In this document: positions 6,932 through 55,979 of the stretch, one piece after another
Numbering within the stretch: the first letter of the stretch is position 1
How the letters are laid out: each line of letters starts with the position of its first letter
From: Collinsella sp.
Lineage (GTDB): Bacteria; Actinomycetota; Coriobacteriia; Coriobacteriales; Coriobacteriaceae
Direction of reading: 5' to 3'
DNA length: 64,000 nt
NCBI GenBank assembly: GCA_022739635.1
Contig: JAIIUG010000001.1
Location: forward strand, 7,185-71,184
Notes under the pieces: model-generated
What the model was told of the DNA's origin: nothing
What the model saw: the letters and a program-made list of their open reading frames with translations, nothing else
Databases searched by the model: none
Program-made: the position numbers and the translations under genes

Positions 6932-7025
6932 GACGGGCATTGTCACACATCCCCATGAAGTTGCGGTGGAATAGGGACTGTTTTGGCCTCTGGAGCCCGT
7001 ATTCAGTCCCTATTTCACCGCAACT
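6932..7025 (+). repeat. 94-bp palindromic intergenic element, copy 1
   Basis: Sequence: GACGGGCATTGTC..CCCATGAAGTTGCGGTGGAATAGGGACTGTTTTGGCCTCTGGAGCC..AGTCCCTATTTCACCGCAACT. The 20-nt arms GTTGCGGTGGAATAGGGACT and AGTCCCTATTTCACCGCAAC pair with one mismatch. About 86 of 94 nt are identical to copy 2 at 8876..8969, in the same orientation. Confidence 0.9.
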
Positions 7026-7169
7026 CAAATGATCCCTCGGGGACGGAGGAAAACCGACCATTACGACTGGCCGAAAAATGTTGCCGATGGTGAATGTTGC
7101 GCAACAAGATTTTCGAATCCCGATTAACCATGGCAGTATCGTCATTCGAATCTAGAGGAAAGGATTGCC

Positions 7170-8759: not shown

Positions 8760-8789
8760 CGAACAAAACCCAATAGATCCCAACCACCA

Positions 8790-8828
8790 AGGCCCCGTTC
8801 CGAAACACTCCAGAACGGGGCCTATTTT
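8790..8828 (+). terminator. Rho-independent terminator after the 7170..8759 gene
   Basis: AGGCCCCGTTC-cgaaacactcca-GAACGGGGCCT followed by ATTTT, about 30 nt after the stop codon. Confidence 0.75.
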
Positions 8829-8875
8829 GAGGCAAAGAGTAGCCGTTGGAGACGTTCTTAGGGTTGCTAATTTGG

Positions 8876-8969
8876 GACGGGCATTGTCGCACGCTCCCAT
8901 GAAGTTGCGGTGGAATAGGGACTGTTTTGGCCTCTGGAGCCTTCATTTAGTCCCTATTTCACCGCAACT
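8876..8969 (+). repeat. 94-bp palindromic intergenic element, copy 2
   Basis: Same element as 6932..7025. A 46-nt core and the 21-nt right arm are identical between copies. The differences cluster in the left flank and in the 8-nt apical loop. Confidence 0.9.
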
Positions 8970-8970
8970 T

Positions 8971-9010
8971 AAAAAAGGGGCGCTGACCGAGATAGTCAGC
9001 GCCCCTTTTG
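8971..9010. terminator. Bidirectional Rho-independent terminator downstream of livF
   Basis: AAAAAA-GGGGCGCTGAC-cgagata-GTCAGCGCCCC-TTTTG. An A-run precedes the hairpin and a T-run follows it. It lies about 10 nt beyond the livF stop (minus strand). Confidence 0.8.
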
Positions 9011-9019
9011 TTGGATTGG

Positions 9020-9733
9020 CTAGCCTCCGAGATATGCCTTACGCACGTTGTCGTCGTGCAGGAGCTCTTGGCCCGTGCCGGTCATGGTGATCTTGCCGGT
9101 CTCGAGCACGTAGCCGCGCGTGGCGATCGAGAGCGCCATCTGCGCGTTCTGCTCGACCAGAAGCACCGTGGTGCCGGCCTTGTGCAGGTCCTCGACAATC
9201 TGGAAGATCTGCTCAATCAGAATCGGCGCCAAGCCCATGGAAGGCTCGTCGAGCATGAGCAGCTTGGGGTTGCTCATAAGGGCGCGGCCCATAACGAGCA
9301 TCTGCTGCTCGCCGCCCGAAAGGGTGCCGGCGACCTGGCGACGGCGCTCCTTCAGGCGCGGGAACTGCTCGTAGACGCGCTCAAGGCCCGGAGCAACCGT
9401 GGACTTGGGCTGCGTGTAGGCGCCCATCTCCAGGTTCTCCTCGACCGTCATCTGCAAAAAGGCGCGACGGCCCTCGGGCACCTGGGCCAGGCCCTTACCA
9501 ACCAGCTTATCGGCGGGCGTATGGGTAATGTCCTCGCCCATAAACTTGATGGAGCCGGTCTTGGAACGCAGCAGGCCCGAGACAGTCTTGAGCGTTGTGG
9601 ACTTGCCGGCACCGTTCGCGCCGATCAGAGCCACGATCTCGCCCTCGTTGACGTTAAAGGAGATGTCCTTGATGGCGTGGATGGCGCCGTACCAGACGTT
9701 GATGTTGTAGACGGAAAGCATCGGCTCTGCCAT
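9020..9733 (-). CDS. livF: Branched-chain amino acid ABC transporter ATP-binding protein LivF
   Basis: Walker A GANGAGKST, signature LSGGEQQML and Walker B LLMLDEPSMGLAP. It is the last gene of the liv-type operon. Confidence 0.9.
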   Translation of the reverse strand: MAEPMLSVYNINVWYGAIHAIKDISFNVNEGEIVALIGANGAGKSTTLKTVSGLLRSKTGSIKFMGEDITHTPADKLVGKGLAQVPEGRRAFLQMTVEENLEMGAYTQPKSTVAPGLERVYEQFPRLKERRRQVAGTLSGGEQQMLVMGRALMSNPKLLMLDEPSMGLAPILIEQIFQIVEDLHKAGTTVLLVEQNAQMALSIATRGYVLETGKITMTGTGQELLHDDNVRKAYLGG

Positions 9734-10594
9734 TTAGTTCTCCCCCTTATCCTGCTTGCCCAGATACGCCTCGATAACGGCGTCGTTGTTCTGGATCTCC
9801 TCGGCTGTGCCCTTGGCGATGACCTTACCAAAGTTGAGCACGCAGATGCCCTCGCAGATGTTCATAACGAGCGACATGTCATGCTCGATAAGCATGATGG
9901 CAATGCCGAAGGTGTCGCGGATCTTGACGATGTTCTCCATGAGCTCGGCGGTCTCGGACGGGTTCATGCCGGCGGCAGGCTCGTCGAGCAGCAGTAGCTT
10001 GGGGTTGGTGGCAAGCGCGCGGACGATCTCCAGACGACGCTGGGCGCCGTAAGGCAGCGATCCGGCCTGCTCGTTTGCCAGGTGCTCCATATCAAAGATG
10101 GACAGCAGTTCCATGGCGCGCTCGTGGGCGGCCTTCTCGTGCTTCCAGTACGTAGGCAGGCGTAGCACGCCCTCAAAGCCGGAGTAACGCTCCTGGTTGT
10201 GCAGACCGACCTTAACGTTATCCTCCACCGTCATGGTGTTGAACAGGCGAATGTTCTGGAAGGTACGAGCGATGCCCATACGGTTGACCTGATAGACCGA
10301 CTTACCCGAGGTGTCCTCACCGTCGAGCAGGATGGTGCCGTGCGTGGGCTGGTACACCTTGGTGAGCAGGTTGAAGACCGTGGTCTTGCCGGCACCGTTG
10401 GGGCCGATCAGACCAGCGATCTCAGTCTTGCCGATGGTTAGGCTAAAGTCGTCGACTGCCTTAAGGCCGCCGAATTCAATGCCCAGGTGGATGCACTCGA
10501 GCGCCGGACGCTCGCCCAGGTCGCGGTCGGGAACGATGGCGCCAGAAGGATACGGGACCATCTTGCCCTTGTTGAACTCAAACTTACTGGGCAT
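9734..10594 (-). CDS. livG: Branched-chain amino acid ABC transporter ATP-binding protein LivG
   Basis: ORF track gives 9734..10621. I moved the start to M10 (MPSKFEF), which is preceded by a strong SD (GAAGGAGGTG). Motifs GPNGAGKTT, LPYGAQRRLEIVRAL and LLLLDEPAAGMNP. Confidence 0.9.
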   Translation of the reverse strand: MPSKFEFNKGKMVPYPSGAIVPDRDLGERPALECIHLGIEFGGLKAVDDFSLTIGKTEIAGLIGPNGAGKTTVFNLLTKVYQPTHGTILLDGEDTSGKSVYQVNRMGIARTFQNIRLFNTMTVEDNVKVGLHNQERYSGFEGVLRLPTYWKHEKAAHERAMELLSIFDMEHLANEQAGSLPYGAQRRLEIVRALATNPKLLLLDEPAAGMNPSETAELMENIVKIRDTFGIAIMLIEHDMSLVMNICEGICVLNFGKVIAKGTAEEIQNNDAVIEAYLGKQDKGEN

Positions 10595-15571: not shown

Positions 15572-16915
15572 ATGAGCGAACCCCTGCGCACCGTGAACGT
15601 CGGTCTGATCGGTCTGGGAACCGTCGGCGGCGGCGTGGCCCGTCTGATCAAGAGCCACCACGATGAGTACCTGGCCGCCTACGGCATCGACCTTAAGCTG
15701 ACCCGCGCCTGCGCGCTTGCCTGGGAGCAGGCCGAGGCGGCAGGCATTGAGCGCGAGGCCTTTACGAGCGACTGGCACGATGTCGTCACCGACCCCGCCG
15801 TCGACATCGTCGTCGAGCTGATCGGCGGCGAGCACCCCGCAACCGAGATCTTCACCACCGCCTTCGAGAACGGCAAGCATGTCGTCTCCGCCAACAAGGC
15901 CCTGCTGGGCCGCCATGTCGAGACGCTCGCCGAGAAGGCACGCGCGTGCGGCGTGCAGATTAAGTGCGAGGCCAGCTGCGGCGGCGGCATCCCCATCGTG
16001 AGCACGCTCGAGCACGACCTGGTGGGCAACAAGATCCTGACCATCGCCGGCATTCTCAACGGTACCACCAACTATATCCTGTCGCGCATGGACGCCGAGG
16101 GCGCCGATTACGCCGACGTACTTGCCGACGCGCAGGCCAAGGGCTATGCCGAGGCCAACCCGTCCGCCGACGTCGACGGCTTCGACGCCGCCAGCAAGAC
16201 GGCAATCCTCGCCTCCATCGGTTTTGGCACCCGCGTTACCACCGACGATGTGTACCAGCAGGGTATCCGTACCATCGGTGCCGAGGACATCGCCCAGGCC
16301 CGCGAGCTCGGCTACACCATTAAGCTGCTCGGCATCGCCCGCAATACCGACGCCGGCGTCGACGTCCGCGTTCATCCCACGCTGATCCCCGCCGACCACA
16401 TGCTTGCCAAGGTCAACGGCGCCATGAACGCTGTCTACGTGGTAGGCGACGCCGTGGGCGAGACCATGTTCTACGGTGCCGGCGCAGGCTCCTTCCCCAC
16501 CGCGAGCGCCGTCGTGGGCGATATTCTGTCGCTCTCCGAGCAGATCAGCCGCGGCGTGGCTCCGCTGCCCGAGATTGAGCCCTATGGCCACAACCTCGCC
16601 TTTAAGCCCATGGACGAGCTCCAGACCAAGTACTATGTGCGCCTGAAGGTCGCCGACCGCGTGGGCGCCCTGTCCGAGACGGTCGACATCTTTGCAAAGC
16701 ACAACATCTCGATCTCGCTCATCAACCAGGTCGAGGACGGCAAATCGGGCGTCAGCGATGCCTGCTCGGTCATCTTCCTGACGCACCGCGCGCTCGAGAA
16801 GGACGTCCAGGCTGCCGCCGCCGAGCTTGCCGGCGTCGACTGCGTGGCCGAGGTCGCCAACGTCCTGCGCATCGAGGACGTTGAGGCCTGGACCGAAGGC
16901 GTCATGGCGAACTAA
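15572..16915 (+). CDS. hom: Homoserine dehydrogenase
   Basis: NAD-binding site VGLIGLGTVGGGV, the central catalytic region, and a C-terminal ACT-like segment YYVRLKVADRVGALSETVDIFAKHNISI. Confidence 0.9.
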   Translation: MSEPLRTVNVGLIGLGTVGGGVARLIKSHHDEYLAAYGIDLKLTRACALAWEQAEAAGIEREAFTSDWHDVVTDPAVDIVVELIGGEHPATEIFTTAFENGKHVVSANKALLGRHVETLAEKARACGVQIKCEASCGGGIPIVSTLEHDLVGNKILTIAGILNGTTNYILSRMDAEGADYADVLADAQAKGYAEANPSADVDGFDAASKTAILASIGFGTRVTTDDVYQQGIRTIGAEDIAQARELGYTIKLLGIARNTDAGVDVRVHPTLIPADHMLAKVNGAMNAVYVVGDAVGETMFYGAGAGSFPTASAVVGDILSLSEQISRGVAPLPEIEPYGHNLAFKPMDELQTKYYVRLKVADRVGALSETVDIFAKHNISISLINQVEDGKSGVSDACSVIFLTHRALEKDVQAAAAELAGVDCVAEVANVLRIEDVEAWTEGVMAN

Positions 16916-16945
16916 TTCGATCTTTGCTTTACGGCATATGTGTGA

Positions 16946-16980
16946 GGGGCTCCCGTCCGGCGCTGGACGGGAGCCCCTTT
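16946..16980 (+). terminator. Rho-independent terminator after hom
   Basis: GGGGCTCCCGTCC-ggcgct-GGACGGGAGCCCC followed by TTT. Confidence 0.8.
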
Positions 16981-17132
16981 GCCTGCGCACGCTGGGCGTA
17001 TTGGCGCAATCAGCATTTGAACAACTCGGCCGCTCCTGACAGCCGGGGGCACCGTTCGCCGATGTGCAACCGAAGCCGATTTTGGCTACCGCTATGCTGT
17101 GCTTATATCCGTCCACGAAGAGAGGAAGCACT

Positions 17133-17882
17133 ATGTTGCTCGAAGGCAAGAAAGCAATCATCACCGGAGGCACGCGCGGGATCGGCTATGCCATCGCCTG
17201 CCGTTTTATCGAGGAAGGTGCCGCCGTCACCGTCTTTGGCTCGCGCCAGGAGACCGCCGATGCAGCCGTCGAGAAGCTGGTCGCCGCCTATCCCGAGGCC
17301 AAGGTCTGGGGCCGCTCCTGCGACCTCACCTCGCTCGAGGCCGTAACCGAGGCCTTTACCCAGGCTGCCGCCGATATGGGCGGCTTGGACACGGTCGTCA
17401 ACAATGCCGGCATCTCCCAGCGCTCGCCCCTTTTGGATTACACGGCCGAGGAGTTCGCCAAAGTCATGGACCTCAACGTCGTCGCCGTCTTTAACGGCCA
17501 CCAGGCGGCCGCCAAGATTATGACCGAGGCCGGCCACGGCGGCACCATCACCACCACGAGCTCGATGGTCGCCAAGTACGGCCAGCCCTCCGGCGTCGGT
17601 TACCCCACGTCCAAGTTTGCCGTCAACGGCATGGTCCAGTCGCTCTCGCGCGAGCTCGCCCCCATGGGTATTCGCGTCAACGCCGTCGCCCCAGGCGTAA
17701 CCAAGACCGATATGGTCGCCAACCTGCCCGAAGAGGTCATCAAGCCCATCATCGCCACCATTCCGCTGGGTCGCATGGGCGAGCCCGAGGATGTCGCCAA
17801 CGCCTTTGTCTTCTTGGCAAGCGACATGTCCTCCTATGTCACGGGCGCCATCCTCCCCGTCGACGGAGCCGCCCGCTCCTAA
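17133..17882 (+). CDS. SDR-family oxidoreductase (FabG-like)
   Basis: ORF track gives 17064..17882. I moved the start to M24 (MLLEGKKAIITGGTRGIG), with SD GAGAGGAAG. Motifs TGGTRGIG, NNAG and YPTSK (YxxxK). Confidence 0.85.
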   Translation: MLLEGKKAIITGGTRGIGYAIACRFIEEGAAVTVFGSRQETADAAVEKLVAAYPEAKVWGRSCDLTSLEAVTEAFTQAAADMGGLDTVVNNAGISQRSPLLDYTAEEFAKVMDLNVVAVFNGHQAAAKIMTEAGHGGTITTTSSMVAKYGQPSGVGYPTSKFAVNGMVQSLSRELAPMGIRVNAVAPGVTKTDMVANLPEEVIKPIIATIPLGRMGEPEDVANAFVFLASDMSSYVTGAILPVDGAARS

Positions 17883-18103: not shown

Positions 18104-19666
18104 TTATTTACCGTCGTCGTCCTCGGCTTCTTCTCTTGCATAGAGCTCCAGCATGCGGCGGCGGTATTCACGCACGGCGAGCTTGGCGCGCTCCAGGCGG
18201 CGACGCTCGCGCGGAGTCAGCTCGGACGGGTCGACCTCGTCTCCATAGGTCTTGTCGGCAAGCAGGTGCGCCGCGTCCACGATGCGGGCATCGATGTGGC
18301 CGCTCGCCGCCTCGGCGGAAAGACGCTCGGCAATCGTATCGAGCGTAGGCAGGCCCTCGAATACGCGACCGTGACCATGCGAGGTCAGCAGCTCGTGCTC
18401 GCGTGCGAGCAGGCTCGCCAAATCGTGATGGGCACGCAGGATGTCGAACGCATCGGATGGATGCTCGGCGACCTCTGCCACGGCGGCGACCGGCGCGGCG
18501 TCGACCACGCGGTAGAAGAGCTGCGCGAGCAGCGGCATCAAGAACACCGTGATGGCGCCGGCGGCAACCATGACCGACGCAATATCTTGCGACAGCGCGC
18601 CCGCGTTGACGGCAACGCTCGTCACGGCAACGATGATCGGCAGGGCCGTGGTGCAGTAGAGCGCCACGGTAATGCGGCCATACGCCGAGACATCGCGCGT
18701 CGCAGGACAAATGCTCATAGAGACAAGAATCGGCGCCGCGCGAATGATCAGCAGCGCCACGATAAAGCCCGCGAGCAGCCCGGGACGCGACGCCACGGCC
18801 GTCAGGTCGATCTTTGCGCCCGATACAGTAAAGAACACCGGAATCAAAAAGCCGTAGGCCAGGCCGTCGAGCTTGGTTTCGAGCGTGTGGTTGCCCTCGG
18901 GGATGATATAGCGCAGGACAAAGCCGGCGGCAAAAGAACCCAACACGATATCGAGGTCAAAGACGGCCGAAAACGCCACGAGCGTGACCAGGATGAGCAC
19001 CGTCAGGCGCACGAAGGTCTGCGACGTGGTATCGGCGCGCTCCTCGACAAACGCAAAGAAGCGGCTGCCGACGCGCTTGGAGCGGCTCGGGACCACGGCC
19101 AGTAACACGCAAACCACCGCAAACAAGCCAAGGATTACGAGCGTTTGGATGCCAGTGCGAGCAGACAGCAGCACCGACATGGCAAGCACGGGACCGAGCT
19201 CGCCCCAAGTGCCATACGCGAGAATCGAGTCGCCCACGCGCGTGCCGGTGAGCGAGCGCTCGCGCATGATGGGCACGAGCGTGCCGAGCGCCGTAGAAGT
19301 GAGGGCAAGCGTCACGGCGATACCGTCGAAATGACTGACCGAGAACCACGGGGTAAAGCGCACGGCAAGCCAGGCGATACCAAACGTGACGACCCACGTC
19401 GCCAAGCCGTAGCGCCCCTCGACACCCGTGATGCTCTTGGGGTCGATCTCAAAGCCGGCGAGCAGGAACAAAAAGGCCAGGCCGAGCTCGGACACAAGCG
19501 AGACCTCGGCATCTACATGGATGACCCCGAGCATATGGGGTCCCAGCACCGCACCGAACACGAGCAAAAAGACGGTCTCGGGAACGGGTTTTCCGGGAAT
19601 CGCCGAGGCGATGAAGGGGCTTGCAAAGGCCACGAGCGCGATGATGGCGAGTGAAACGAATGCCAT
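18104..19666 (-). CDS. Cation:proton antiporter (CPA2/Kef-like) with a C-terminal soluble tail
   Basis: 520 aa. About 12 hydrophobic segments are followed by a roughly 130-aa charged tail. The overall pattern resembles the Na+/H+ exchanger family. Confidence 0.8.
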   Translation of the reverse strand: MAFVSLAIIALVAFASPFIASAIPGKPVPETVFLLVFGAVLGPHMLGVIHVDAEVSLVSELGLAFLFLLAGFEIDPKSITGVEGRYGLATWVVTFGIAWLAVRFTPWFSVSHFDGIAVTLALTSTALGTLVPIMRERSLTGTRVGDSILAYGTWGELGPVLAMSVLLSARTGIQTLVILGLFAVVCVLLAVVPSRSKRVGSRFFAFVEERADTTSQTFVRLTVLILVTLVAFSAVFDLDIVLGSFAAGFVLRYIIPEGNHTLETKLDGLAYGFLIPVFFTVSGAKIDLTAVASRPGLLAGFIVALLIIRAAPILVSMSICPATRDVSAYGRITVALYCTTALPIIVAVTSVAVNAGALSQDIASVMVAAGAITVFLMPLLAQLFYRVVDAAPVAAVAEVAEHPSDAFDILRAHHDLASLLAREHELLTSHGHGRVFEGLPTLDTIAERLSAEAASGHIDARIVDAAHLLADKTYGDEVDPSELTPRERRRLERAKLAVREYRRRMLELYAREEAEDDDGK

Positions 19667-33449: not shown

Positions 33450-33955
33450 GTGCGAAGAAGCTGCCCCGCCTTGCAGGACTGGGGCGACGCAAGAAACTCG
33501 TCGTTGTCTGCCTGGCTATCGCCTGCGCCCTCATCGCCGTAGGGCTATACGCCTGGCAGTCGCAGCCCGTACCCGAAGCGGGCGCCTCAGTCACGACGGC
33601 AGAGGGTAAATCGCGCCAAGAAATCCAAGATGAGCTCGACGCCATCGTCCGCGACAACATGATGACGATCTCGGTCGCACCGGTCGCACAGTTGCAGGAA
33701 GACGGCAAGTTGCGCGTCAACGTGCAAAACGTCCAAGACAACAAGTTTCCCCAGCGTTTCCGCGTGATTCAAAACGACGAGACCATCTATGAGTCCGGTG
33801 TGGTCGAAGCCGGCAAGACGGTTGAGACCTGCCCCGCCGGCGATATCCAAGAAGGCGAGGCATATATCGAGATTCAGGCACTCGATGCCAAGACCTACGA
33901 CACCCACGGCAATCCGACGCGCGTCAAAGTGCGGGTGGCCCAGGCAGAAGGCTAG
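33446..33955 (+). CDS. N-terminally membrane-anchored hypothetical protein
   Basis: Internal start of track ORF 32837..33955 at the ATG 33446 (MSAKKLPRLAGLGRRKKLVVVCLAIACALIAVGLYAWQ). One TM helix is followed by a soluble domain of about 130 aa. Confidence 0.6.
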   Translation: MSAKKLPRLAGLGRRKKLVVVCLAIACALIAVGLYAWQSQPVPEAGASVTTAEGKSRQEIQDELDAIVRDNMMTISVAPVAQLQEDGKLRVNVQNVQDNKFPQRFRVIQNDETIYESGVVEAGKTVETCPAGDIQEGEAYIEIQALDAKTYDTHGNPTRVKVRVAQAEG

Positions 33956-34044
33956 TGGCAGACGCGCTCGCAGGGGCAGCACCCTGCCCCCCCATTCGTC
34001 CAACCATCACGGAAACAGTCCGTGACGAGCAGAAAGGATCGATT

Positions 34045-34647
34045 ATGAACACACCCATGAACCTGAGCGGAGCCAGGGCACTCGCCGTGGGCGCAGGGCT
34101 TACGCTCGCACTTGCGATGGGCGCCGCGCCAACGGCGGCCATGGCAGAGGTGCGCGTTGGAACCACCGATGTGACGGTGAAGGCCGACATTAGCAATGTT
34201 TCGTTTAAGGCGCCAACGGTCATCCCCTTTGCCGCCAATGCCGACGGAACGCTTGTAGGACCCTCCGGCAAGACGCTTACCATCGACAACCTCTCGGCAT
34301 ATGGCATCCACGTCACTAACATGAAGGTCACGGCCAAGAACGACTGGACAATCGCCGCAGACGCAAAAACGGGCTCGGCCCAGAACTCCATCGATTTTAA
34401 GGTTGGCCCCGATAAGGCAGAGAAGGATGCCAGCTCGGCGACTCAGACTACGGGCCTCGATCTTTCCAAAGACGCAAGCTTCGACATGAAGTACCAGGGC
34501 ATTGCCGACGGAACGGACAAAATCAAGCTCAATGTGAGTGGCCACGTCGCCCGCGTCACGCGTGACATCTACCACGCCACCGGTACGGGAGATCAAGTGG
34601 CAAGCATCACCTGGACGGTCGAGCCCGGTGCGCACGCCACGTCCTAA
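34045..34647 (+). CDS. Secreted protein with WxL-like motifs
   Basis: I moved the start to M31 of track ORF 33955..34647 (MNTPMNLSGARALAVGAGLTLALAMGAAPTAAMAEV), with SD AAAGGA. Has a signal peptide. NDWTI and the C-terminal ASITWTVEPG resemble the two W-x-L motifs of WxL surface proteins. Confidence 0.65.
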   Translation: MNTPMNLSGARALAVGAGLTLALAMGAAPTAAMAEVRVGTTDVTVKADISNVSFKAPTVIPFAANADGTLVGPSGKTLTIDNLSAYGIHVTNMKVTAKNDWTIAADAKTGSAQNSIDFKVGPDKAEKDASSATQTTGLDLSKDASFDMKYQGIADGTDKIKLNVSGHVARVTRDIYHATGTGDQVASITWTVEPGAHATS

Positions 34648-34927: not shown

Positions 34928-36331
34928 ATGGCACCCAAAAACCTTTTGCCCGTTGCCGCGCTCTGCAGCGCACTGGCGAGCGGCACGCCTCTCGCCGCTT
35001 GGGCGACGCCCGCCATGGCAAACTCCTTACCGCAAGCTCTGACCCCCGTGGCGAATTCGTCGGGTATCGTCGCCTGCCAACGTTTTTCGCTCGCACATGC
35101 CACGGTCCGAACCTCGGGATGCCTTCACCGCAATACGGTCGACTCGATAGTCGTGGATATCAAGCGACCGGACAAGGAGAACGGCCCCCAGACAGGTTAT
35201 GCCATCTGCACATGGAAATCGGCTGCAGTCGACGCCGATGGCGACCCATGCGACTTAGAGCTGCGCATCGATATTGACTCGGTCGATGACTCGGCGAACG
35301 GGGCGAAGGTCGTCTTCGACAGCGCGGCCTATGAAGAAGAAGGAGGGGGTGTATGCCTGGGCTGCGTTCCCTCGAATGTCGATGGCGCGCAGCCCATCAT
35401 CTCCTTTACGGCATCGCTGCGACTGACCAAGGCGGGCACCGAAGCCATCGCAACGGGAGATGCGCCTTTGCTGTTCTACGCTGGCGACGCGGACGACCCA
35501 GAGGCTCAAAACAATAGGCAGAAGGGCTCGCTTAACCTCACGCGCGGATCGGAACCCGCCCCCATCAATATCGATACCCAGGCGCAAGGCGTGCAGCGCA
35601 TTCTCGCCGATCCGGCGCTGCTCCAAATGACATGGCACGGAGTGGGGTCCGTCGGGATTGCTGCTCCTATATCTAGCGATAATGACAAATCCCCCAAAGA
35701 CGAGGTCGCAGACGCACCGGCACATGTTGACGATGCAGACGATGCATCATCAGAAGACAACGCTACGGCTCCTCTCGAGAAGCCAGACGGCACCGCCACC
35801 GAATTAGGCGATTCCCAACCGAAAGACGGCCTGGACTTTGCCGCTCCCCCAGATGTCGACGAAGGTAACTGTTGCATGATGGTCGCGCTCGACCACACGG
35901 AAACCGTCGATGCCGCAAGCATTGAGCCAGTCGCTGCCGATGCGCCCCGCCGCAAAAATATCCTCATCGCATTCCCCAATACCGTCGAGCTCGTCTTTTT
36001 GCCTTCGGGTGAAGTCGTCGCGCCTACGGCACTTACAGCAATGGGAGCAAGGAGTGCATCAAACGATATCCAAGCTATCTCGGCACTTGATGCCACAACG
36101 ACCGCCAAGTTACACCTTTATTCCGTTGCAGCAGACGGAACGCGAACCGAAGAATTCGACGGAACCAAGCTTTTGGTTCCTCGTCGCATCGGTATCCAAG
36201 AAGACTTCCCCTATCAAATGGAACTTGAAGGGTTCGATCGTGCACGAGATGCCGACATCATTGCCGCAGCCATCGTATCCCCGCAGCACCTCATGACGCT
36301 GCGCTTCGACTTTAGCCCCGTCCTGTCCTAG
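34928..36331 (+). CDS. Secreted 467-aa hypothetical protein
   Basis: SD AGGAG upstream. Signal peptide MAPKNLLPVAALCSALASGTPLAAWATPAMA. An acidic low-complexity linker sits in the middle. I recognised no family. Confidence 0.65.
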   Translation: MAPKNLLPVAALCSALASGTPLAAWATPAMANSLPQALTPVANSSGIVACQRFSLAHATVRTSGCLHRNTVDSIVVDIKRPDKENGPQTGYAICTWKSAAVDADGDPCDLELRIDIDSVDDSANGAKVVFDSAAYEEEGGGVCLGCVPSNVDGAQPIISFTASLRLTKAGTEAIATGDAPLLFYAGDADDPEAQNNRQKGSLNLTRGSEPAPINIDTQAQGVQRILADPALLQMTWHGVGSVGIAAPISSDNDKSPKDEVADAPAHVDDADDASSEDNATAPLEKPDGTATELGDSQPKDGLDFAAPPDVDEGNCCMMVALDHTETVDAASIEPVAADAPRRKNILIAFPNTVELVFLPSGEVVAPTALTAMGARSASNDIQAISALDATTTAKLHLYSVAADGTRTEEFDGTKLLVPRRIGIQEDFPYQMELEGFDRARDADIIAAAIVSPQHLMTLRFDFSPVLS

Positions 36332-37137: not shown

Positions 37138-37225
37138 ATCTATCTACGCAGCGGTATCTCGAACATCTGTTTGATGCTGTGCTATGATATGAGGTCACCG
37201 AAGCTGCGTTAGGAGAGGAGAAGCG

Positions 37226-38971
37226 GTGGCCGACCAGGACGTCAAGATGCTCATCGAGCGCATTATGGCCGAGGCCCGGACCCATCAGTCCGCCCGCTTC
37301 TCAAACGAAATCTATGCTGACGAGCCGATTCTCAAGACCGGTCGTCAGATGCAGAACTTCCTCCCCGACCAGTACCGCAAGATGCGCGAGATATCACGCT
37401 GGCAAGATGATCCCAAAGGCGGCGCGGGGCGTTGGCTATCGGAGGCGGAGCTCTTTTACCGCCAAGGCCTGCTGATGGCCGACTTCGAGGACGATTGTCC
37501 CTACAACGGCACCTTTAAGTCGTACTTTCCCACCTACAATGCCATGAGCGATCGACAGTTGCGCGGCTACTTTACCTGGCGTGCCCAAGTGCGCCGCGGC
37601 AATATCGAGGAGACATCGACCTCGTTTGCTTTTCTGTATCTCTACGAATTGATCTGCGGCATTGGCGTCGACAATCCGCGCGACGGCTATGACAAGATCA
37701 AGGCATTTTGGGATGCCTATCGCGCCTTTGAACCCGGCATCGACCGGTTCGCACGCGTATGGCTGCAGGACTACGCCGTGTTCCATGAGCTCGACCCCAA
37801 GCTGCTTCGCGACTCTAAAACCGTCGCATTCGACAACGCCCTCATCGAGCTGCGCCGCGCAGCGCGAGACCTTGCACCCGCGCCGGCGCCGTCGGCCCTG
37901 TCCCCCAAACGTCGCAAGACCTCCGAGCCCACGCTTCCCCTTCCGCCCGATGAGGCGCATGAGGAGCGGCTCATGGCTGCCATCGACGCGCTCTCGACGT
38001 ACAACCTGAATAACTCACGGCTCGACCGTTCCCACCATCGCGACCTGCGCCACGTGGCATGCGCCGTGTATGTCCGCATGGCGCGCTACTATGACACGCA
38101 CCGAAAGACCGGCATCGTAGCGAGCTTGTTTGGGGAGGAGACGGCCATGCCCTACACCATGTTTGCCTCAGCCGTGTTCTTTGCGCCCGAGCGCCACGAG
38201 GACTGCGAATATCGCCTGGACCCCATTCACATCTACCGCTGCCAAAATGGCTTTTGGGAATGTATGCGCATCCACGGCAGCAGACAAAAAAGTAGCAAGC
38301 TCGGTGAGATGATGCGCGCTTGCGATCAGCGCCTGCGCTTGGCACTGGATCCCAGCCATCCCCTTAAGGAAGAAAAGGTTCCCAAATATCTGGCTAAGAT
38401 TATCGATGACGAGATCGTGGCATGGCTTTCATGGGATGCCGCGCATCAGCCCGTCAAGATCGATATCGACCTGAGCCGGCTGGGGCACATTCGGAGCGCC
38501 GCCGCACAAACGCGCGAGGCGCTTTTGATCGACGAGGAGCGCGAGGACGGCGCGCTTGCGGATGTCGAGGTGACAGTTGCCGAACGACGGGAAGCCGAGC
38601 CCGTGGCCGAAACGATCGCCGAACCAGTCGCGACGACCATGCAACAGGACGAAGCCAGCGAGCCGACCATCTCCACCGAGCAGTTTGGCGTCGTAGCCCC
38701 GCTCCTCGCACCAGCACCCACGCCCGCCGACACCGCGTCCGCACTCAATCCCGCCGCAAACGCCTATCTTCGAGCACTGCTCGAGCAAAACGCAGCGCAG
38801 ACGGCATCGGCGGTGGCACAGTCGGGCAAGAGTGAGGACATGCTCGTCGATAGCATCAACGAAGCGCTCTTTGACCTGGTGGGCGACACCGTTATTGAAT
38901 TTGGCCCAGCAGGACCGCAAATTATCGAGGACTACGAAGCAGACGTGAGAGGATACTTAGACCATGAGTGA
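37226..38971 (+). CDS. TerB-N / TerB-C domain protein (Shango SngA-like)
   Basis: GTG start after SD AGGAGAGGAG. TerB_N-like segment YFPTYNAMSDRQLRGYFTWRAQVRRG..FAFLYLYELICG. TerB_C-like segments IDIDLSRLGHIRSAAAQTREALL and the terminal INEALFDLVGDTVIEF. Confidence 0.85.
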   Translation: MADQDVKMLIERIMAEARTHQSARFSNEIYADEPILKTGRQMQNFLPDQYRKMREISRWQDDPKGGAGRWLSEAELFYRQGLLMADFEDDCPYNGTFKSYFPTYNAMSDRQLRGYFTWRAQVRRGNIEETSTSFAFLYLYELICGIGVDNPRDGYDKIKAFWDAYRAFEPGIDRFARVWLQDYAVFHELDPKLLRDSKTVAFDNALIELRRAARDLAPAPAPSALSPKRRKTSEPTLPLPPDEAHEERLMAAIDALSTYNLNNSRLDRSHHRDLRHVACAVYVRMARYYDTHRKTGIVASLFGEETAMPYTMFASAVFFAPERHEDCEYRLDPIHIYRCQNGFWECMRIHGSRQKSSKLGEMMRACDQRLRLALDPSHPLKEEKVPKYLAKIIDDEIVAWLSWDAAHQPVKIDIDLSRLGHIRSAAAQTREALLIDEEREDGALADVEVTVAERREAEPVAETIAEPVATTMQQDEASEPTISTEQFGVVAPLLAPAPTPADTASALNPAANAYLRALLEQNAAQTASAVAQSGKSEDMLVDSINEALFDLVGDTVIEFGPAGPQIIEDYEADVRGYLDHE

Positions 38972-40265
38972 TACCGCATCCGCAGCACCCCGCGTGCCCA
39001 AGCGCGTCGCCGCCGTCATTCTCAACTCGCTCAAGGGCGGCGTTGTCCCGCGCATCGGCCTTCCCTATATCACCGTGGGGCGAGAGGTCGAGATCCGTGC
39101 TCTGCTCACCGACCTGAGCCTCATCGCCGATGGCGGCGCAAGCTTCCGTTTCCTAGTCGGTCGCTACGGCGCCGGCAAGAGCTTTTTGCTCCAGACCATC
39201 CGAACGCATGCCATGGGCGAGGGCTTTGTGGTCGCCGATGCCGACCTTTCCCCTGAGCGCCGCATACAGGGCGGCCAGGGACAGGGCCTTGCCACCTACC
39301 GCGAGCTCATCCGCAACATATCGACCAAGACGCGCCCCGAGGGCGGCGCGCTCAACCTTATCCTGGATCGCTGGGTCGCCTCGTGTGCCGACGCCGACGA
39401 GTCTGCCGTTAATGCCCAACTCGCTCCGCTCGAAGAGATGCTTCACGGCTTTGACTTTGTCCGCATGCTCCGCCGTTATCGCACGGCCGTCTCGGAGGGT
39501 GACGAAGAGGCCATGAGCCGCGTGACCAAATGGATCCGCGGCGAATACCGCACCAAGAGTGAGGCTCGCGCCGAGCTGGGCTCCTCAACCATCATCAGCG
39601 ATGACGACTGGTACGACTACGTTAAGCTCATTGCGCGCTTTTTGGTCTGCAGCGGCTACAAGGGCATGCTGGTGCTCATCGACGAGCTCGTGAATCTGTA
39701 TAAGATTCCCAACGCGATCACGCGCCAATATAACTACGAGAAGATCCTGACTATGTACAACGACACGCTCCAAGGCAAAGCGCAGTACCTGGGCGTGATC
39801 ATGGGCGGCACGCCGACCTCTATCGAGGACCGCCGCCGCGGCGTGTTCTCTTACGAGGCCCTGCGCAGTCGACTCGCTCAAGGCCGTTTTGCGCGCGATG
39901 ATCTCAAAGACATGCTCGCGCCCATCATCCGCCTGCAGCCGCTCACCTACGAGGAGCTGCTGGTGCTCATCGAAAAGCTCATGCAGATCCATGCCGGCTA
40001 CTTTGACTGGACGCCCACGCTTACCGAGAACGACTTGGTGGACTTCCTCAAGATTGAGTTTGGCCGCGTGGGGGCCGATACGCATCTGACGCCCCGCGAG
40101 GTCATCCGCGACTTTATCGAGCTGCTCGATATCCTGTGTCAGAACCCCGATGCTAACGTGGCCGAATTACTGCAAAGCGTCGGCGGCGACGCGCTGGTGC
40201 CGGCAGCCGCGACAGACGACACCGGCACCACAGACGACCGCAACTTCGCCGAATTCACCATCTAA
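38964..40265 (+). CDS. P-loop ATPase, DUF2791 / BREX-type ATP-binding domain (Shango SngB-like)
   Basis: Overlaps the upstream gene by 8 nt. Walker A GRYGAGKSFLL and Walker B MLVLIDELVNLY. The N-terminal LKGGVVPRIGLPYITVGRE is typical of this family. Confidence 0.85.
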   Translation: MSDTASAAPRVPKRVAAVILNSLKGGVVPRIGLPYITVGREVEIRALLTDLSLIADGGASFRFLVGRYGAGKSFLLQTIRTHAMGEGFVVADADLSPERRIQGGQGQGLATYRELIRNISTKTRPEGGALNLILDRWVASCADADESAVNAQLAPLEEMLHGFDFVRMLRRYRTAVSEGDEEAMSRVTKWIRGEYRTKSEARAELGSSTIISDDDWYDYVKLIARFLVCSGYKGMLVLIDELVNLYKIPNAITRQYNYEKILTMYNDTLQGKAQYLGVIMGGTPTSIEDRRRGVFSYEALRSRLAQGRFARDDLKDMLAPIIRLQPLTYEELLVLIEKLMQIHAGYFDWTPTLTENDLVDFLKIEFGRVGADTHLTPREVIRDFIELLDILCQNPDANVAELLQSVGGDALVPAAATDDTGTTDDRNFAEFTI

Positions 40266-40380
40266 CCTGCCAAAAGGGACAGGTTTATTTTGGTAGGTTT
40301 TATCTGGGCAAACGCCGATGTTGCAAGATATCGAGCCGTTGCCCGTTGCGTTGATCGGCCCGTTGATGAGAGGAGGTCCC

Positions 40381-42825
40381 ATGAACGCTTTTGACCGATA
40401 TGCCCCGTTTATCCAGGATTTCATTTACTCCCACGATTGGGAGAGTCTGCGCTCCATCCAGGTTGCGGCGGCAGATGCCATCTTCAACACGCAAGACAAT
40501 GTGCTCCTAACGGCATCCACGGCATCTGGCAAAACTGAGGCGGCCTTCTTTCCCATCCTGACCGAGTTTTGGGAGAACCCGCCCGCGAGCGTGGGCGCCC
40601 TCTACATTGGCCCCCTCAAAGCACTCATCAACGACCAGTTCGTTCGCCTCAACGATCTGTGCGAAGAGGCCGATATCCCCGTCTGGCACTGGCACGGAGA
40701 TGTCTCGCAGTCGCACAAGGCAAAGCTCATCAAAAAGCCGAGCGGTATCCTACAGATTACGCCCGAATCACTCGAGGCACTCCTGATCCACAAGCACATG
40801 GCAATCCCGCGTATGTTCTGCGACCTGCGCTATGTGGTCATCGACGAGGTCCACTCGCTCATGCGCGGTGATCGCGGCGGGCAGACACTCTGCCTTATCG
40901 AGCGTCTTTCGCGCATGGCGGGTGTGCGGCCCCGGCGCATCGGCCTTTCGGCCACCATCGGGGACCCGGAACGCACGGGTGCCTTCCTGTCGCAGGGGAC
41001 GGGACGCGACTGCGTCATCCCCCGCTTTGAGGAGCCGCGCCGCGTGTGGCGTATCTCCATGGAGCACTTCTACAACTCGGGCCCCCAGGCGCAGCAGCGA
41101 GGATTCACGAGCACAGGTCCGCAGGAAGCTGAGGTGCTCGCATGCGAGCGCATTGAGGCGGCACCACCCGCGGCACTGCCCGTCAGCACCCAAGATATGC
41201 GCCATAGTGGACAACTCACACAGGAGGAACGCCGTCAACGTCGCGAGCAGGCACGGGGCAAGGCTGCCCCCAAAGACCGTCGCACTTCCTCGGCCCCCGA
41301 GGGCGAAGTCGACATCCCGCAGGCAACCGAACAGACGCTCCTCAACCCCACCGACACCGCACCCGACAACGCCGACCCCGGCATGGGCTACATCTTTGAA
41401 CACACCCGCGGCCGCAAGTGCCTGGTCTTTGCCAACTCGCGCGAGGAGGCAGAGGCCGTGTGCTCCATGTTGCGCAGCTACTGTGAAAACCGGCACGAGC
41501 CAGACCGCTTCCTCATCCATCATGGCAACCTCTCGGCATCGCTACGCGAGACCGCCGAGGAGCTCATGCGCGACGAGGAACAGGCACAGACAACCGTCAC
41601 CACCTCCACGTTGGAGCTCGGCATTGATATCGGTCGCCTGGAGCGCGCGTTCCAAATCGATGCACCGTTTACCGTCAGCTCCTTTTTGCAGCGCATGGGG
41701 CGCACAGGTCGCCGCGATCTTCCGCCCGAGATGTGGTTTGTCATGCGCGAGGAGGAGCCCGAGCCGCGCACGATGATGCCCGAGACCATTCCGTGGAAGC
41801 TCCTGCAGGGCATCGCGCTGGTACAACTCTATCGCGAAGAAAAGTGGGTCGAGCCACCCGAGCTCGATCGACTCCCCTACAGTCTGCTCTATCACCAGAC
41901 CATGTCGACGCTCGCCAGCACCGGCGAGCTCACACCGGCCGAGCTTGCTCAGCGCGTGCTCACGCTCAGCTATTTCCACCGCGTCTCGGCCGATGACTAT
42001 CGCGTACTGCTGCGCCACCTCATCAAGATCGACCACATCCAGATCACCGAGGGCGGTGGGCTCATCGTGGGCCTCGCGGGCGAGCGCATCATCAACAACT
42101 TTAAGTTCTACGCTGTGTTCCAGGAAAACGAGGAGTTCACCGTTCGCAGCGAATCGGCCGAGCTGGGCACGATCGTTAATCCGCCCCCGCCCGGTGAGCG
42201 CATCGCCATCGCCGGCCACTGCTGGATTGTCGAGGAAGTGGACTGGAAGCGTCATACCGTCTTTGCCACGCAGGTCAAGGGCCGTGTGCCGGCCTACTTT
42301 GGCGACTGCCCCGGCGACATCAATACACACGTACTCGAGCGCATGCGCAAGGCGCTCAACGAGCACGCGGCATATCCGTACCTCATGGGCAACGCGCGGG
42401 CACGCCTTGCACAGGCTCGTCATACCGCCGAGATTTCGGGCGCGGGAACCAAGCCGCTCATTAACCTGGGCGGCGACACCTGGGTGCTCTTCCCCTGGCT
42501 GGGTAGCTACGCCTTTTTGGCGCTCGAGCGCATGCTCAAGATCAAGTGTGCCGCGGAACTGGGCCTTCGCGGACTCGATCCGTCGCGTCCATACTTTATG
42601 CAGTTTAAGATGAAGGCCGATGAGGAGACGTTCTTTGAGGTGCTCGCCGCCGAGGCCGAGAAGGACTTCGACCCCATCGAGCTCGTCTATCCCGGCGAGG
42701 TGCCTTATTTTGATCGCTACGACGAGTACGTTCCCGAAGAGCTCGTACGCAAGGGCTTTGCCGAAGGCGTGCTCGACATCGATGGCATGAAGCAGCGCGT
42801 CCTCAGCTGGCGCGCCCACACATAA
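40381..42825 (+). CDS. DEAD/DEAH-box SF2 helicase, Lhr-like (Shango SngC-like)
   Basis: I moved the start to M22 (MNAFDRYAPF), after SD GAGGAGG. Motif I TASGKTEAAF, II VVIDEVHS, III LSATIG, V TSTLELGIDIG and VI QRMGRTGRR. The long C-terminal region resembles the Lhr core WH/beta-barrel. Confidence 0.9.
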   Translation: MNAFDRYAPFIQDFIYSHDWESLRSIQVAAADAIFNTQDNVLLTASTASGKTEAAFFPILTEFWENPPASVGALYIGPLKALINDQFVRLNDLCEEADIPVWHWHGDVSQSHKAKLIKKPSGILQITPESLEALLIHKHMAIPRMFCDLRYVVIDEVHSLMRGDRGGQTLCLIERLSRMAGVRPRRIGLSATIGDPERTGAFLSQGTGRDCVIPRFEEPRRVWRISMEHFYNSGPQAQQRGFTSTGPQEAEVLACERIEAAPPAALPVSTQDMRHSGQLTQEERRQRREQARGKAAPKDRRTSSAPEGEVDIPQATEQTLLNPTDTAPDNADPGMGYIFEHTRGRKCLVFANSREEAEAVCSMLRSYCENRHEPDRFLIHHGNLSASLRETAEELMRDEEQAQTTVTTSTLELGIDIGRLERAFQIDAPFTVSSFLQRMGRTGRRDLPPEMWFVMREEEPEPRTMMPETIPWKLLQGIALVQLYREEKWVEPPELDRLPYSLLYHQTMSTLASTGELTPAELAQRVLTLSYFHRVSADDYRVLLRHLIKIDHIQITEGGGLIVGLAGERIINNFKFYAVFQENEEFTVRSESAELGTIVNPPPPGERIAIAGHCWIVEEVDWKRHTVFATQVKGRVPAYFGDCPGDINTHVLERMRKALNEHAAYPYLMGNARARLAQARHTAEISGAGTKPLINLGGDTWVLFPWLGSYAFLALERMLKIKCAAELGLRGLDPSRPYFMQFKMKADEETFFEVLAAEAEKDFDPIELVYPGEVPYFDRYDEYVPEELVRKGFAEGVLDIDGMKQRVLSWRAHT

Positions 42826-45731: not shown

Positions 45732-46631
45732 TCACTCCGAATCAAACGACATGTCACCCGAACCAACCTCAAAACGATACGTGGCAGACTTATCACCGTT
45801 GTCGAATTCAAGATTCAATATGGTCTCGCCATCGTAGCCAAGCGGAAGGAAATCGCTCTCGAAGTCGCCACTGCCCACGGTGAGGCTCGCCTTAAAGCCC
45901 GTAGAGTTCGGAACCGTTATCTCCACGTCGCCCGAGCCCACGCTCACGTCCATCGACTTCGCGGGCGCCTGGTAGAGCTCGAACGTCATGTCGCCCGAAC
46001 CGACCTCGGCATTCAGGGTGTCGGTTACAGTGCCCGCAAACTCAACGTCTCCCGAGTCCAAAGTCAGGTTGAGGTCATGACACGCAATGTCCGTGACCGT
46101 CAGATCGCCCGCTCCTACATTCGCTGTAATGCCCACTATGTTATCGGCAACTTCGCGCGGCAGTTCGACGGTAACCGTGCGGTCAATGGCGCGCTCGTCA
46201 TCGCAATCGAACTGGCGAAGCTTGAGCGCAGAACCCTTAACCTCGACCAGATTCTGGGTTGCCGCATCGTAAGCAGCTACTCCTTTTGCGACGCGGCCAC
46301 TCTCGATGACACGTACCGGCCCGTCGGAGACGTGTTTGACCTCGACCGCGCCCGACGTCACGTCCAAGTCAAGCGATGTGAACGCGTCGGCATCAAACGT
46401 TTCGCTCGAAAGCTGTTGAGGCCGAGCGGAATAGTTACCGCCATCCAAAGAATCGTCCCCGTCAACCACATCGTCCATACCGGACAAACCGGATGCAATA
46501 TCGCCGAGATCCCACGGGCCATCAAAATGAAACAATATCCGCGAAGTGCCAAAGATAAGCCCGATGATGAGCACGAACGCTCCGATACCGACGCCCAGGC
46601 GGACCTTGGACTCATGCGAGAGCTTCATCAT
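45732..46631 (-). CDS. DUF4097-like beta-repeat protein with an N-terminal TM anchor
   Basis: N-terminal TM helix. At least six G(S/A)GD(M/V/L/F) strand repeats (VGSGDMTFE, VGSGDVEIT, VGSGDFESD, VGAGDLTV, SGDVEFAG, VGSGDMSFD). Confidence 0.7.
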   Translation of the reverse strand: MMKLSHESKVRLGVGIGAFVLIIGLIFGTSRILFHFDGPWDLGDIASGLSGMDDVVDGDDSLDGGNYSARPQQLSSETFDADAFTSLDLDVTSGAVEVKHVSDGPVRVIESGRVAKGVAAYDAATQNLVEVKGSALKLRQFDCDDERAIDRTVTVELPREVADNIVGITANVGAGDLTVTDIACHDLNLTLDSGDVEFAGTVTDTLNAEVGSGDMTFELYQAPAKSMDVSVGSGDVEITVPNSTGFKASLTVGSGDFESDFLPLGYDGETILNLEFDNGDKSATYRFEVGSGDMSFDSE

Positions 46632-55227: not shown

Positions 55228-55554
55228 TTAGCGAGCATCCACCACATAGAGTCCAACGCGCACCTGATGCCACGGGCTGCGCTCGGGGGCAACCTGTTGC
55301 ACACGGGCCTCAAATACGTACCCATGGCCGTAATACATCATCAAGGACAGCGGGCCGGCCTCGTTTCCCGGAACATAGCCGAGCTTGGTGTTGCCGTAGT
55401 AGATCGCAACCGCCTCGGGATCATGGGGATTATCGCGCTCGGCACACAGCGTCAGCTTATCGCCCGCTTTAAGATCGCCCAAGACCAAGGCGCCATCGGC
55501 ATACTGAAATCCTGCAATATGATACGACAAAAGAACACGTGAAGGCTCGTACAT
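55228..55554 (-). CDS. Stand-alone HIRAN domain protein
   Basis: SD AGAGGAG upstream. HIAGFQYADGALVLGDLKAGDKLTLCAERDNPHDPEAVAIYYGNTKLGYVP matches the HIRAN pattern. Confidence 0.8.
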   Translation of the reverse strand: MYEPSRVLLSYHIAGFQYADGALVLGDLKAGDKLTLCAERDNPHDPEAVAIYYGNTKLGYVPGNEAGPLSLMMYYGHGYVFEARVQQVAPERSPWHQVRVGLYVVDAR

Positions 55555-55931: not shown

Positions 55932-55971
55932 CAAAATGCGGGTAATAGGAACACTTGTTCGTATTACCCGC
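55932..55971 (-). terminator. Rho-independent terminator after the aldehyde dehydrogenase gene
   Basis: The minus strand reads GCGGGTAATA-cgaacaagtgttcc-TATTACCCGC followed by ATTTT. Confidence 0.7.
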
Positions 55972-55979
55972 GATCTTTT

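Follow-up and report, generated by a model that had tools for sequence, protein, structure and literature searches.

Shango is a phage-defence system of three proteins, SngA, SngB and SngC, that conferred 10-100-fold protection in Escherichia coli and Pseudomonas aeruginosa (Millman et al. 2022; Johnson et al. 2023). A TerB-linked system had been predicted earlier by Anantharaman et al. These two papers and the later ones examined give no mechanism for Shango, whose trigger is still being sought. Two of its proteins have homologues in type 2 BREX (bacteriophage exclusion). BrxHI consists of a superfamily 2 (SF2) helicase followed by a winged helix-turn-helix, a beta-barrel and an Lhr-like C-terminal domain, and BrxD is a stand-alone ORC/Cdc6-type AAA+ ATPase that is tightly linked to BrxHI and may load or activate it (PMC12839542, a comparative study of 2026). 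Here, 64,000 nucleotides of DNA from Collinsella sp. were analyzed (assembly GCA_022739635.1, contig JAIIUG010000001.1, positions 7,185 to 71,184 of the forward strand; this whole stretch is referred to as the window). An original prediction, made from the sequence of the window, had proposed a defence candidate of Shango architecture at positions 37226-42825, and its statements on Shango, on the earlier TerB prediction and on the lack of a mechanism agree with the literature. Sequence comparison identifies this locus as a Shango (SngABC) operon, a member of an already described system, in the chromosome of the Collinsella aerofaciens group. The architecture is known; new is the context, in which the operon is fixed, sngC has in nature become detached from sngAB in sister lineages, and an SOS-type operator is conserved.

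A complete Shango operon in Collinsella

The locus consists of three adjacent, co-oriented genes (Table 1). The open reading frames (ORFs) and the overlap of 8 nt between the first two are as originally stated, and the gap between sngB and sngC amounts to 52-115 nt, depending on the start assigned to sngC. All motifs on which the gene labels had been based were recovered in the translations, namely YFPTYNAMSDRQLRGYFTWRAQVRRG, FAFLYLYELICG, IDIDLSRLGHIRSAAAQTREALL and INEALFDLVGDTVIEF in the first gene, GRYGAGKSFLL and VLIDELVNLY in the second, and TASGKTEAAF, DEVH, SAT and QRMGRTGRR in the third. The labels themselves agree with Pfam. The TerB_N/TerB_C protein matches TerB_N (1.7e-34) and TerB_C (4e-16), the DUF2791/BrxD-type P-loop ATPase matches BrxC_BrxD (PF10923, formerly DUF2791; 4.3e-148), and the SF2 helicase matches DEAD (2.7e-26) and Helicase_C (1.4e-17); chance does not account for scores of this size. 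The best genome matches were C. aerofaciens and uncultured Collinsella species, with SngA 88-99% identical, in line with the Coriobacteriia-like genome that had been suggested.

The PADLOC models for Shango match all three proteins in the canonical order. SngA was recognized with 2.1e-78 (aa 29-576, model positions 53-525 of 528), SngB with 1.1e-168 (model positions 4-438 of 439) and SngC with 1.2e-276 (model positions 4-715 of 720). Since all three matches are nearly full length and in canonical order, the locus is assigned to Shango, as its architecture had suggested. NCBIfam holds no equivalog for SngA, SngB or SngC; the nearest entries to SngC there are Lhr-type DExH helicases. An anti-phage role of the Collinsella operon is predicted by analogy with the homologues of E. 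coli and P. aeruginosa.

It is highly improbable that the locus is instead a recently acquired mobile island, a remnant of type 2 BREX (Pgl) or a Ter stress cluster. SngB and SngC do match the PADLOC models of BrxD (4.6e-39) and BrxHI (1.1e-122, over the full length), but the Shango models score much higher, with 560 versus 133 bits for SngB and 918 versus 409 bits for SngC. No PglZ, PglX, BrxC, PglW, PF05099 or ter genes were found in the neighbourhood. A BREX-2 remnant was ruled out by these scores and by the lack of PglZ, PglX, BrxC and PglW in the neighbourhood. The domains of SngA are named after TerB, but a Ter cluster was ruled out, as Pfam finds only TerB_N and TerB_C in SngA and not the classical TerB domain (PF05099), and no terZACDE or terY genes lie nearby. 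Relatives in other phyla are found on plasmids beside relaxase or insertion sequence (IS) genes, but the Collinsella triad has a native composition, its synonymous divergence equals that of its flanks, and no empty site was found in 74 informative metagenome contigs.

A core locus of the Collinsella aerofaciens group

The distribution of the triad was assessed in two samples. A scan of species-representative genomes for SngA relatives returned at least 578 loci, and gene order was examined in the best 80. In these, the order FAD-oxidase...DUF554-sngA-sngB-sngC-SpeE-like-Elp3-Toastrack is kept wherever the contig reaches. The second sample is independent of Shango and consists of 80 metagenome contigs found with the upstream DUF554 protein alone, of which 74 are informative downstream. 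In all 74, sngA lies 91-199 nt downstream of DUF554, and no empty site (DUF554 without sngA) occurs among them. The original prediction had named strict conservation and synteny among relatives, together with a housekeeping phenotype, as speaking against it. The conservation and synteny were found (80/80 genomes, 74/74 contigs), which renders a defence role in the Collinsella host less secure than the Shango label implies.

The sequences of the triad behave like those of its neighbours. Its GC content of 0.59-0.62 equals that of the rest of the window. Substitution rates were obtained as pooled Nei-Gojobori estimates from 36-155 orthologues per gene. The synonymous divergence (dS) is 0.320 for sngA, 0.309 for sngB and 0.305 for sngC, compared to 0.311-0.377 for the well-sampled flanking genes. 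This equality indicates that in the aerofaciens group the triad is as old as its flanking genes. The ratio of nonsynonymous to synonymous divergence (dN/dS) is 0.116 for sngA, 0.047 for sngB and 0.049 for sngC, and 0.056-0.077 for the flanks. Of the complete copies, at least 93% are intact; most of the others come from low-coverage contigs. The Walker A motif of SngB (GRYGAGKSFLL) is invariant in 122/122 sequences and its Walker B motif (VLIDELVNLY) in 121/122; helicase motifs I, II, III and VI of SngC are invariant or nearly so among orthologues. By these sequence comparisons the triad is a functional, effectively core locus that is vertically inherited at one site between the DUF554 and SpeE-like genes and is kept intact by strong purifying selection. 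A pseudogenised relic was ruled out by the dN/dS values and the motif invariance, and a recent island by the dS values equal to the flanks, the native GC content and the lack of an empty site in the 74 contigs.

Within ~10 kb on each side of the triad, no integrase, transposase or IS element and no second PADLOC system was found, and the corresponding claim of the original prediction holds over this distance. The patchy presence and the mobile or defence neighbours that are typical of a mobile island are thus not a property of the Collinsella triad. These observations also fit a different explanation, namely that the triad of Coriobacteriaceae is mainly a housekeeping module of the DNA-damage response, with phage defence secondary or absent. 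According to this, an SOS-induced SngC with SngB as its loader and SngA as adaptor would act on damaged forks, R-loops and cross-links, as Lhr and MrfA do. The presence at one chromosomal site throughout the unbiased sample and the genomes, the dS values, dN/dS values of sngB and sngC as low as that of Elp3, and the lack of mobile or defence neighbours all speak for it. However, every experimentally tested homologue is an anti-phage system, and core defence systems exist. Overall, this explanation, the main rival of the reading favored below, is considered rather unlikely.

Insertions at the edges of the triad are rare. In one locus (L010, ~6250-9900), DUF554 and the box in the sngA promoter are separated by an insertion of 3.6 kb whose 627-aa ORF runs on the opposite strand. 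In two others (L014 and L063, ~15600-17600), a 2-kb segment of low GC content (0.49), which holds a transporter-like ORF of 413 aa, separates sngC from the SpeE-like gene. For three flanking genes, Collinsella has two allele classes that have diverged deeply; these genes are two ORFs without family match upstream of DUF554 at 33955-34647 and 34928-36331 and the Toastrack gene at 45732-46631. One class is ~95% identical to the window and the other ~71%, 57% and 70%, respectively, and the genes located between these three remain 93-99% identical. A 7.4-kb contig labelled 'Sodaliphilus sp.' (L006, CAVKNR010000061.1) contains the Collinsella locus with SngA 97% and DUF554 98% identical; it probably represents assembly contamination.

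Separated operons and mobile relatives

Nine further lineages of Coriobacteriaceae were compared (loci L163/164, L165, L166, L167/168, L169, L170, L171 and L172). Their neighbourhoods differ from that of the window yet are of housekeeping character (rplJ/rplL, aconitase, uvrB-SLT-coaE-MFS and others), with partial synteny among each other. In all of them sngA and sngB are adjacent and overlap by 4-14 nt. The position of sngC is less constant. It is displaced from sngAB by one gene in L166, by four in L163/164 and by five in L171, so that the layout of three adjacent genes is not retained in these sister lineages; in the remaining ones sngC was not found in the 10 kb available, or in the shorter distance left where the contig ends. 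The displaced genes that were compared (L164, L166) encode clear orthologues of SngC of the window, with 78-79% identity; SngB is 72-77% identical. From sequence comparison, this displacement is read as decay of the kind expected in an operon long resident in the chromosome, and not in a mobile island. The housekeeping explanation gains from these loci, as a helicase gene of high identity persists there one to five ordinary genes away from sngAB, with a LexA-type box of its own.

The wider family is different in this respect, and this stands against a mainly housekeeping role. SngB-like genes were found on 689 plasmids, of which 541 are conjugative, mostly from Klebsiella or Salmonella, and one Klebsiella plasmid copy of Shango adjoins an IS4 element. 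On the megaplasmid pCF002-344 of Clostridium estertheticum the triad adjoins a relaxase gene and IS110. Across Clostridium estertheticum, Blautia, Ructibacterium, a 'Clostridia bacterium' and a metagenome-assembled genome of Anaerolineaceae, SngC proteins of a Firmicutes type (P0388-P0507) share 83-87% identity. Such near-identity across distant taxa suggests very recent horizontal spread.

Relatives of SngA were more difficult to reach. A homologue search with SngA of the window returned near-identical Collinsella clusters and no distant relatives; the latter were obtained via a library of 50% clusters and by searching again from a relative of 50% identity. The family comprises 2,553 cluster representatives at 50% identity. 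The next relatives are 46-60% identical and include sequences with the source names 'Collinsella tanakaei' and 'Coriobacteriaceae bacterium'. A tblastn search of plasmids with SngA gave three Firmicutes matches only; SngA of proteobacteria has diverged too far to be reached in this way.

A conserved, probable LexA-type operator

The intergenic region between DUF554 and sngA measures 88 nt and holds a LexA/SOS-box-like imperfect palindrome, an extended -10 element and a ribosome-binding site. A consensus sigma-70 promoter scanner that requires a -35 hexamer called no site upstream of sngA. No other sequence in the window comes within one mismatch of the actinobacterial LexA box TCGAAC-N4-GTTCGA, and none but this palindrome matches CGAAC-N4-GTTYG strictly. 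Chromatin immunoprecipitation defined the LexA consensus of Streptomyces venezuelae as tCGAAC-N4-GNNCGa, with a validated GTTT half-site at lexA, and the clostridial consensus is GAAC-N4-GTTT/C, with GTTT half-sites validated at lexA and recA of Clostridioides difficile (PMC9380542 and PMC4234289 are the sources of the two consensus sequences). The box matches the Gram-positive/actinobacterial consensus at 11/12 arm positions; this consensus is that of other genera, and the LexA motif of Collinsella may differ. By motif, a LexA operator of the GAAC-N4-GTTC type overlaps the promoter at 37159-37174.

Both arms of the box are kept in 153/156 Collinsella loci, whereas the spacer (ATCT, ACCT, ACTT) and the flanking intergenic bases vary, which constitutes a phylogenetic footprint. 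Over all loci compared (~2.5 Mb), the strict CGAAC-N4-GTTYG motif occurs once in each of 169/172, located 52-66 nt before the sngA start; L166 has a second strict box upstream of its displaced sngC. In the nine other lineages of Coriobacteriaceae, the region upstream of sngA is otherwise unalignable, but each has a TATNNT sequence that is preceded, at a distance of 7-10 nt, by CGAACATCTGTTTG, by CGAACAGATGTTTG or by a closely similar sequence. The displaced sngC genes of L163/164 and L171 are preceded by the perfect GAAC-N4-GTTC palindromes TAGAACACATGTTCTC and TAGAACACGTGTTCGT, each followed by a -10 element. Based on these motifs, the sngAB and sngC transcription units of Coriobacteriaceae are likely to be repressed by LexA.

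Alternatively, the palindrome could serve a different regulator or be no more than a promoter component, in which case the operon would not be damage-inducible. The second half-site upstream of sngA reads GTTT and not GTTC, and in related loci the region upstream of uvrB has a box with one mismatch or no box at all. However, GTTT half-sites are among the validated ones mentioned above, the arms are conserved while spacer and flanks vary, the displaced sngC genes of L163/L164 and L171 have perfect palindromes, and the location over the -35 region corresponds to the classical geometry of a repressor site. Control by something other than LexA is therefore regarded as unlikely.

A LexA-type box was not found in the sngB-sngC spacer within the aerofaciens group. 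This 115-nt spacer contains a weak hairpin followed by TTTATTTT, which may represent an internal attenuator. In L165, an orphan perfect LexA-type palindrome (TAGAACATGTGTTCGT, 18390-18401) is located after a glutamate-synthase-like gene. At this position L171 has sngC with its own box, and L165 has a bgl-like antiterminator/phosphotransferase system operon instead. The window also holds a 34-bp near-perfect palindrome with a perfect GAAC-N4-GTTC box (55949-55960) just after an aldehyde dehydrogenase gene; it lies ~395 nt upstream of an ORF of 108 aa with a HIRAN domain (Pfam 2.2e-14), which is followed by a metallophosphoesterase gene. This palindrome may be either another site of the SOS type or just a terminator hairpin.

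HIRAN domains recognize DNA damage, and the position of the other perfect box of the window upstream of such a gene adds to the case for a housekeeping DNA-damage response. On the other hand, DNA-damage regulators are known to control bona fide defence systems (PMC12392091), so that an SOS box is compatible with defence as well.

Architecture of the Sng proteins

SngA is translated from a GTG start preceded by the Shine-Dalgarno sequence GGAGAGGAG. Its amino-acid variation is limited to two low-complexity linkers, aa 211-255 and 436-540. The AlphaFold 2 (AF2) model has a mean predicted local distance difference test score (pLDDT) of 77.9 and is good in the folded parts. Foldseek found no significant neighbour of this model in the PDB; the only matches were to ~70 residues of LysR winged-helix DNA-binding domains with E>0.5, which is not significant. 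The region of this winged-helix-like match is, at a guess from the model, the helix-helix-helix-hairpin at the C-terminal end. A lenient Pfam scan of the middle region gave nothing significant, and sequence and profile searches of the PDB with SngA and SngB gave no meaningful match. No transmembrane helix is apparent in the secondary-structure listing of the AF2 model of SngA, although no search was aimed at such helices.

The sngA-sngB overlap is kept at 4-14 nt in all lineages compared, and sngB is, as judged from the 8-nt overlap in the window, translationally coupled to sngA. For sngC, ATG 40381 is most likely the true start and not 40318. This is indicated by a GAGGAGG Shine-Dalgarno sequence directly upstream of 40381, with none before 40318, by residues 1-21 being the most variable part of the longer protein, and by the orthologues and the PADLOC model, which begin at the equivalent of M22. 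Variation of SngC is confined to this putatively untranslated 'N-terminus' and to a disordered insert (aa ~256-345). The insert is a low-complexity segment of ~90 aa between RecA1 and RecA2; it is present in the two sister lineages of Coriobacteriaceae compared (the displaced genes of L164 and L166) and absent in the C. estertheticum homologue.

An Lhr-like C-terminal core had been proposed for SngC. The resemblance is upheld for the RecA domains, to which the best PDB matches (Lhr 5v9x/7lhl, MrfA 6znp) are restricted, but the C-terminal ~370 aa matched no solved protein by sequence. In a lenient Pfam scan this part gave nothing significant (WH_Lhr, E=0.27), and DUF1998 was matched neither by the full protein nor by the C-terminal fragment. 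For SngC, the alignment behind the AF2 model was shallow and the model is poor (pLDDT of 51), with Foldseek matches that cover RecA1 only. Similarity of the C-terminus to Lhr is suggested by the full-length homology to BrxHI together with the published analysis of BrxHI (PMC12839542). The nearest solved helicases, Lhr and MrfA, are DNA-repair enzymes, which again favors the housekeeping explanation. Pfam, including lenient scans, found no nuclease or toxin domain in SngA, SngB or SngC.

Possible function and regulation

The reading that is favored here, and that is considered probable, is that of a genuine chromosomal Shango operon, long vertically inherited and putatively LexA-controlled, in which SngB loads SngC. 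Sequence comparison places a LexA-type operator over the -35 region of sngA. Through it, the operon would be repressed in undamaged cells and derepressed when RecA filaments form on single-stranded DNA, i.e. upon DNA damage, prophage induction, or entry and replication of phage DNA. SngA and SngB would be produced at a constant ratio and function as a unit, as suggested by the conserved overlap of 4-14 nt and the unbroken linkage of their genes. As an AAA+ ATPase homologous to BrxD, SngB is predicted to spend ATP on loading or activating SngC on DNA. Lhr is a DExH SF2 helicase that translocates in 3'-to-5' direction. By homology to Lhr and MrfA, SngC may likewise be a 3'-to-5' translocase that unwinds or strips phage replication intermediates or aberrant 3'-tailed DNA and so blocks replication. 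SngA, with TerB_N, the middle domain and a TerB_C with winged-helix-like end, might serve as the sensor or adaptor that targets SngB and SngC. As no nuclease or toxin domain was detected, interference with replication or recruitment of a host nuclease appears more likely than direct cleavage. Operator and gene linkage are the observed parts of this scheme, and the other steps are supplied by homology.

Several points weigh against this favored reading. Fixation, synteny, housekeeping-like rates, the lack of a mobile context and the survival of split operons are atypical of phage defence, and these traits suit a cellular role in DNA damage equally well. The experimentally validated Shango systems are distant relatives of that in the window; compared with the Klebsiella plasmid copy, identity is down to ~42% for SngB and 30-37% for SngC, and tblastn does not detect the SngA of that copy. 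LexA binding at the box is deduced from its motif, and of two uvrB genes inspected as independent SOS genes, that of L165 has a box with one mismatch and that of L169 no box. The model of SngC scores too low to judge the proposed Lhr-like fold of its C-terminus, and the winged-helix hint in SngA is non-significant.

A broader proposal can be put forward only tentatively. In Coriobacteriaceae, Shango may be an old component of the LexA/SOS regulon that has been passed on vertically, and not a mobile immune island, with sngAB and sngC controlled separately by LexA and with the processing of damaged or aberrant DNA as its native job. If this is true, the mobile anti-phage Shango of other phyla and the core module would share a DNA-damage-sensing activity, and the trigger of Shango that has long been sought would be single-stranded DNA or replication damage. 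Independently of this proposal, the conserved LexA-type operator is a lead that links Shango expression to DNA damage or single-stranded DNA. The split versions show SngA and SngB as an inseparable pair and the helicase as able to act from an unlinked gene, and such loci in related Coriobacteriaceae are missed by defence finders that rely on gene neighbourhood. In a genus that is abundant in the human gut, long-term fixation under a constraint like that of housekeeping genes points to a benefit that goes beyond occasional pressure by phages.

Other features of the window

The features referred to above are compiled in Table 1, together with the genes that flank the triad. Two further ORFs were recorded. 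One encodes a RecJ-like exonuclease fused to an SF2 helicase. The other coincides with a dip in GC content to 0.49-0.54, compared to ~0.61, and may have been horizontally acquired.

Table 1. Features of the Collinsella Shango locus and of the surrounding window (aa, residues of the encoded protein)
Feature	Position	Strand	Description
LexA/SOS-box-like imperfect palindrome	37159-37174	+	TCGAACATCTGTTTGA; over the -35 region of the sngA promoter; motif match
Extended -10 element	37180-37188	+	TGcTATGAT; 8 nt 3' of the box; read by eye
sngA (gene 1)	37226-38971	+	GTG start; 581 aa
SngA domains	aa 65-210; aa 407-575		TerB_N (aa 65-210) and TerB_C (aa 407-575), the latter interrupted by a variable acidic/Ala-Pro linker; in the middle a conserved alpha/beta domain; Pfam and AF2
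SngA C-terminal end			helix-helix-helix-hairpin; AF2 model
sngB (gene 2)	38964-40265	+	ATG start; 433 aa; 8-nt overlap with sngA
sngB-sngC spacer	40266-40380		115 nt
sngC (gene 3)	40381-42825	+	814 aa from the likely start; ORF callable from 40318 (835 aa)
Upstream neighbours			EtfAB, FAD-linked oxidase, three ORFs without family match, DUF554 membrane protein
Downstream neighbours			SpeE-like methyltransferase, Elp3-type radical-SAM/GNAT, Toastrack, helix-turn-helix regulator, TrmB-like methyltransferase, DUF3516 helicase, DUF2130
HIRAN-domain ORF	55228-55554	-	108 aa
Near-perfect palindrome	55939-55972		34 bp
RecJ-like exonuclease/helicase ORF	827-4159	-	1110 aa; DHH, DHHA1, RecJ_OB fused to DEAD + Helicase_C
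ORF with zinc ribbon	7170-8759		529 aa; C-terminal zinc ribbon as sole recognisable feature

Comparison with known systems

The Shango systems of E. coli and P. aeruginosa PA14 consist of the same three proteins in the same order and orientation, i.e. a TerB_N/TerB_C protein, a BrxD-like ATPase and a DEAD/DEAH helicase. They differ in their genomic setting. In P. aeruginosa Shango is located in a variable defence hotspot and the copies of Enterobacteria are mostly found on conjugative plasmids, whereas the Collinsella copy is a fixed, syntenic chromosomal locus. Further differences are the LexA-type promoter box, the disordered insert of ~90 aa in SngC and, in the sister lineages of Collinsella, the unlinked helicase gene. 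The C. estertheticum system on pCF002-344 shares the triad and the overlapping genes, with SngB 59% and SngC 58% identical to the window. It differs in being plasmid-borne, in an SngA of only 25% identity, in an SngC without the insert and in its upstream region, where no LexA-type box was found.

The BrxD-BrxHI dyad of type 2 BREX is a homologous pair of ATPase and helicase. In contrast to type 2 BREX, the Collinsella locus lacks PglZ, PglX, BrxC and PglW, the partner of the pair is a TerB_N/TerB_C protein, and no methylation-based component for self/non-self distinction is evident. Lhr and MrfA (YprA) are DExH SF2 helicases and the nearest solved structures for the core of SngC, with similarity demonstrated for the RecA domains only. 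SngC differs from MrfA by lacking a match to the DUF1998 zinc domain and from Lhr by lacking a significant WH_Lhr match; unlike SngC, neither helicase is paired with a BrxD-like ATPase or a TerB protein. Bunzi and Dionysus are further examples of TerB-related domains in phage defence. Their TerB proteins are paired with membrane or pore-forming partners, whereas SngA is paired with a DNA-acting ATPase and a helicase.

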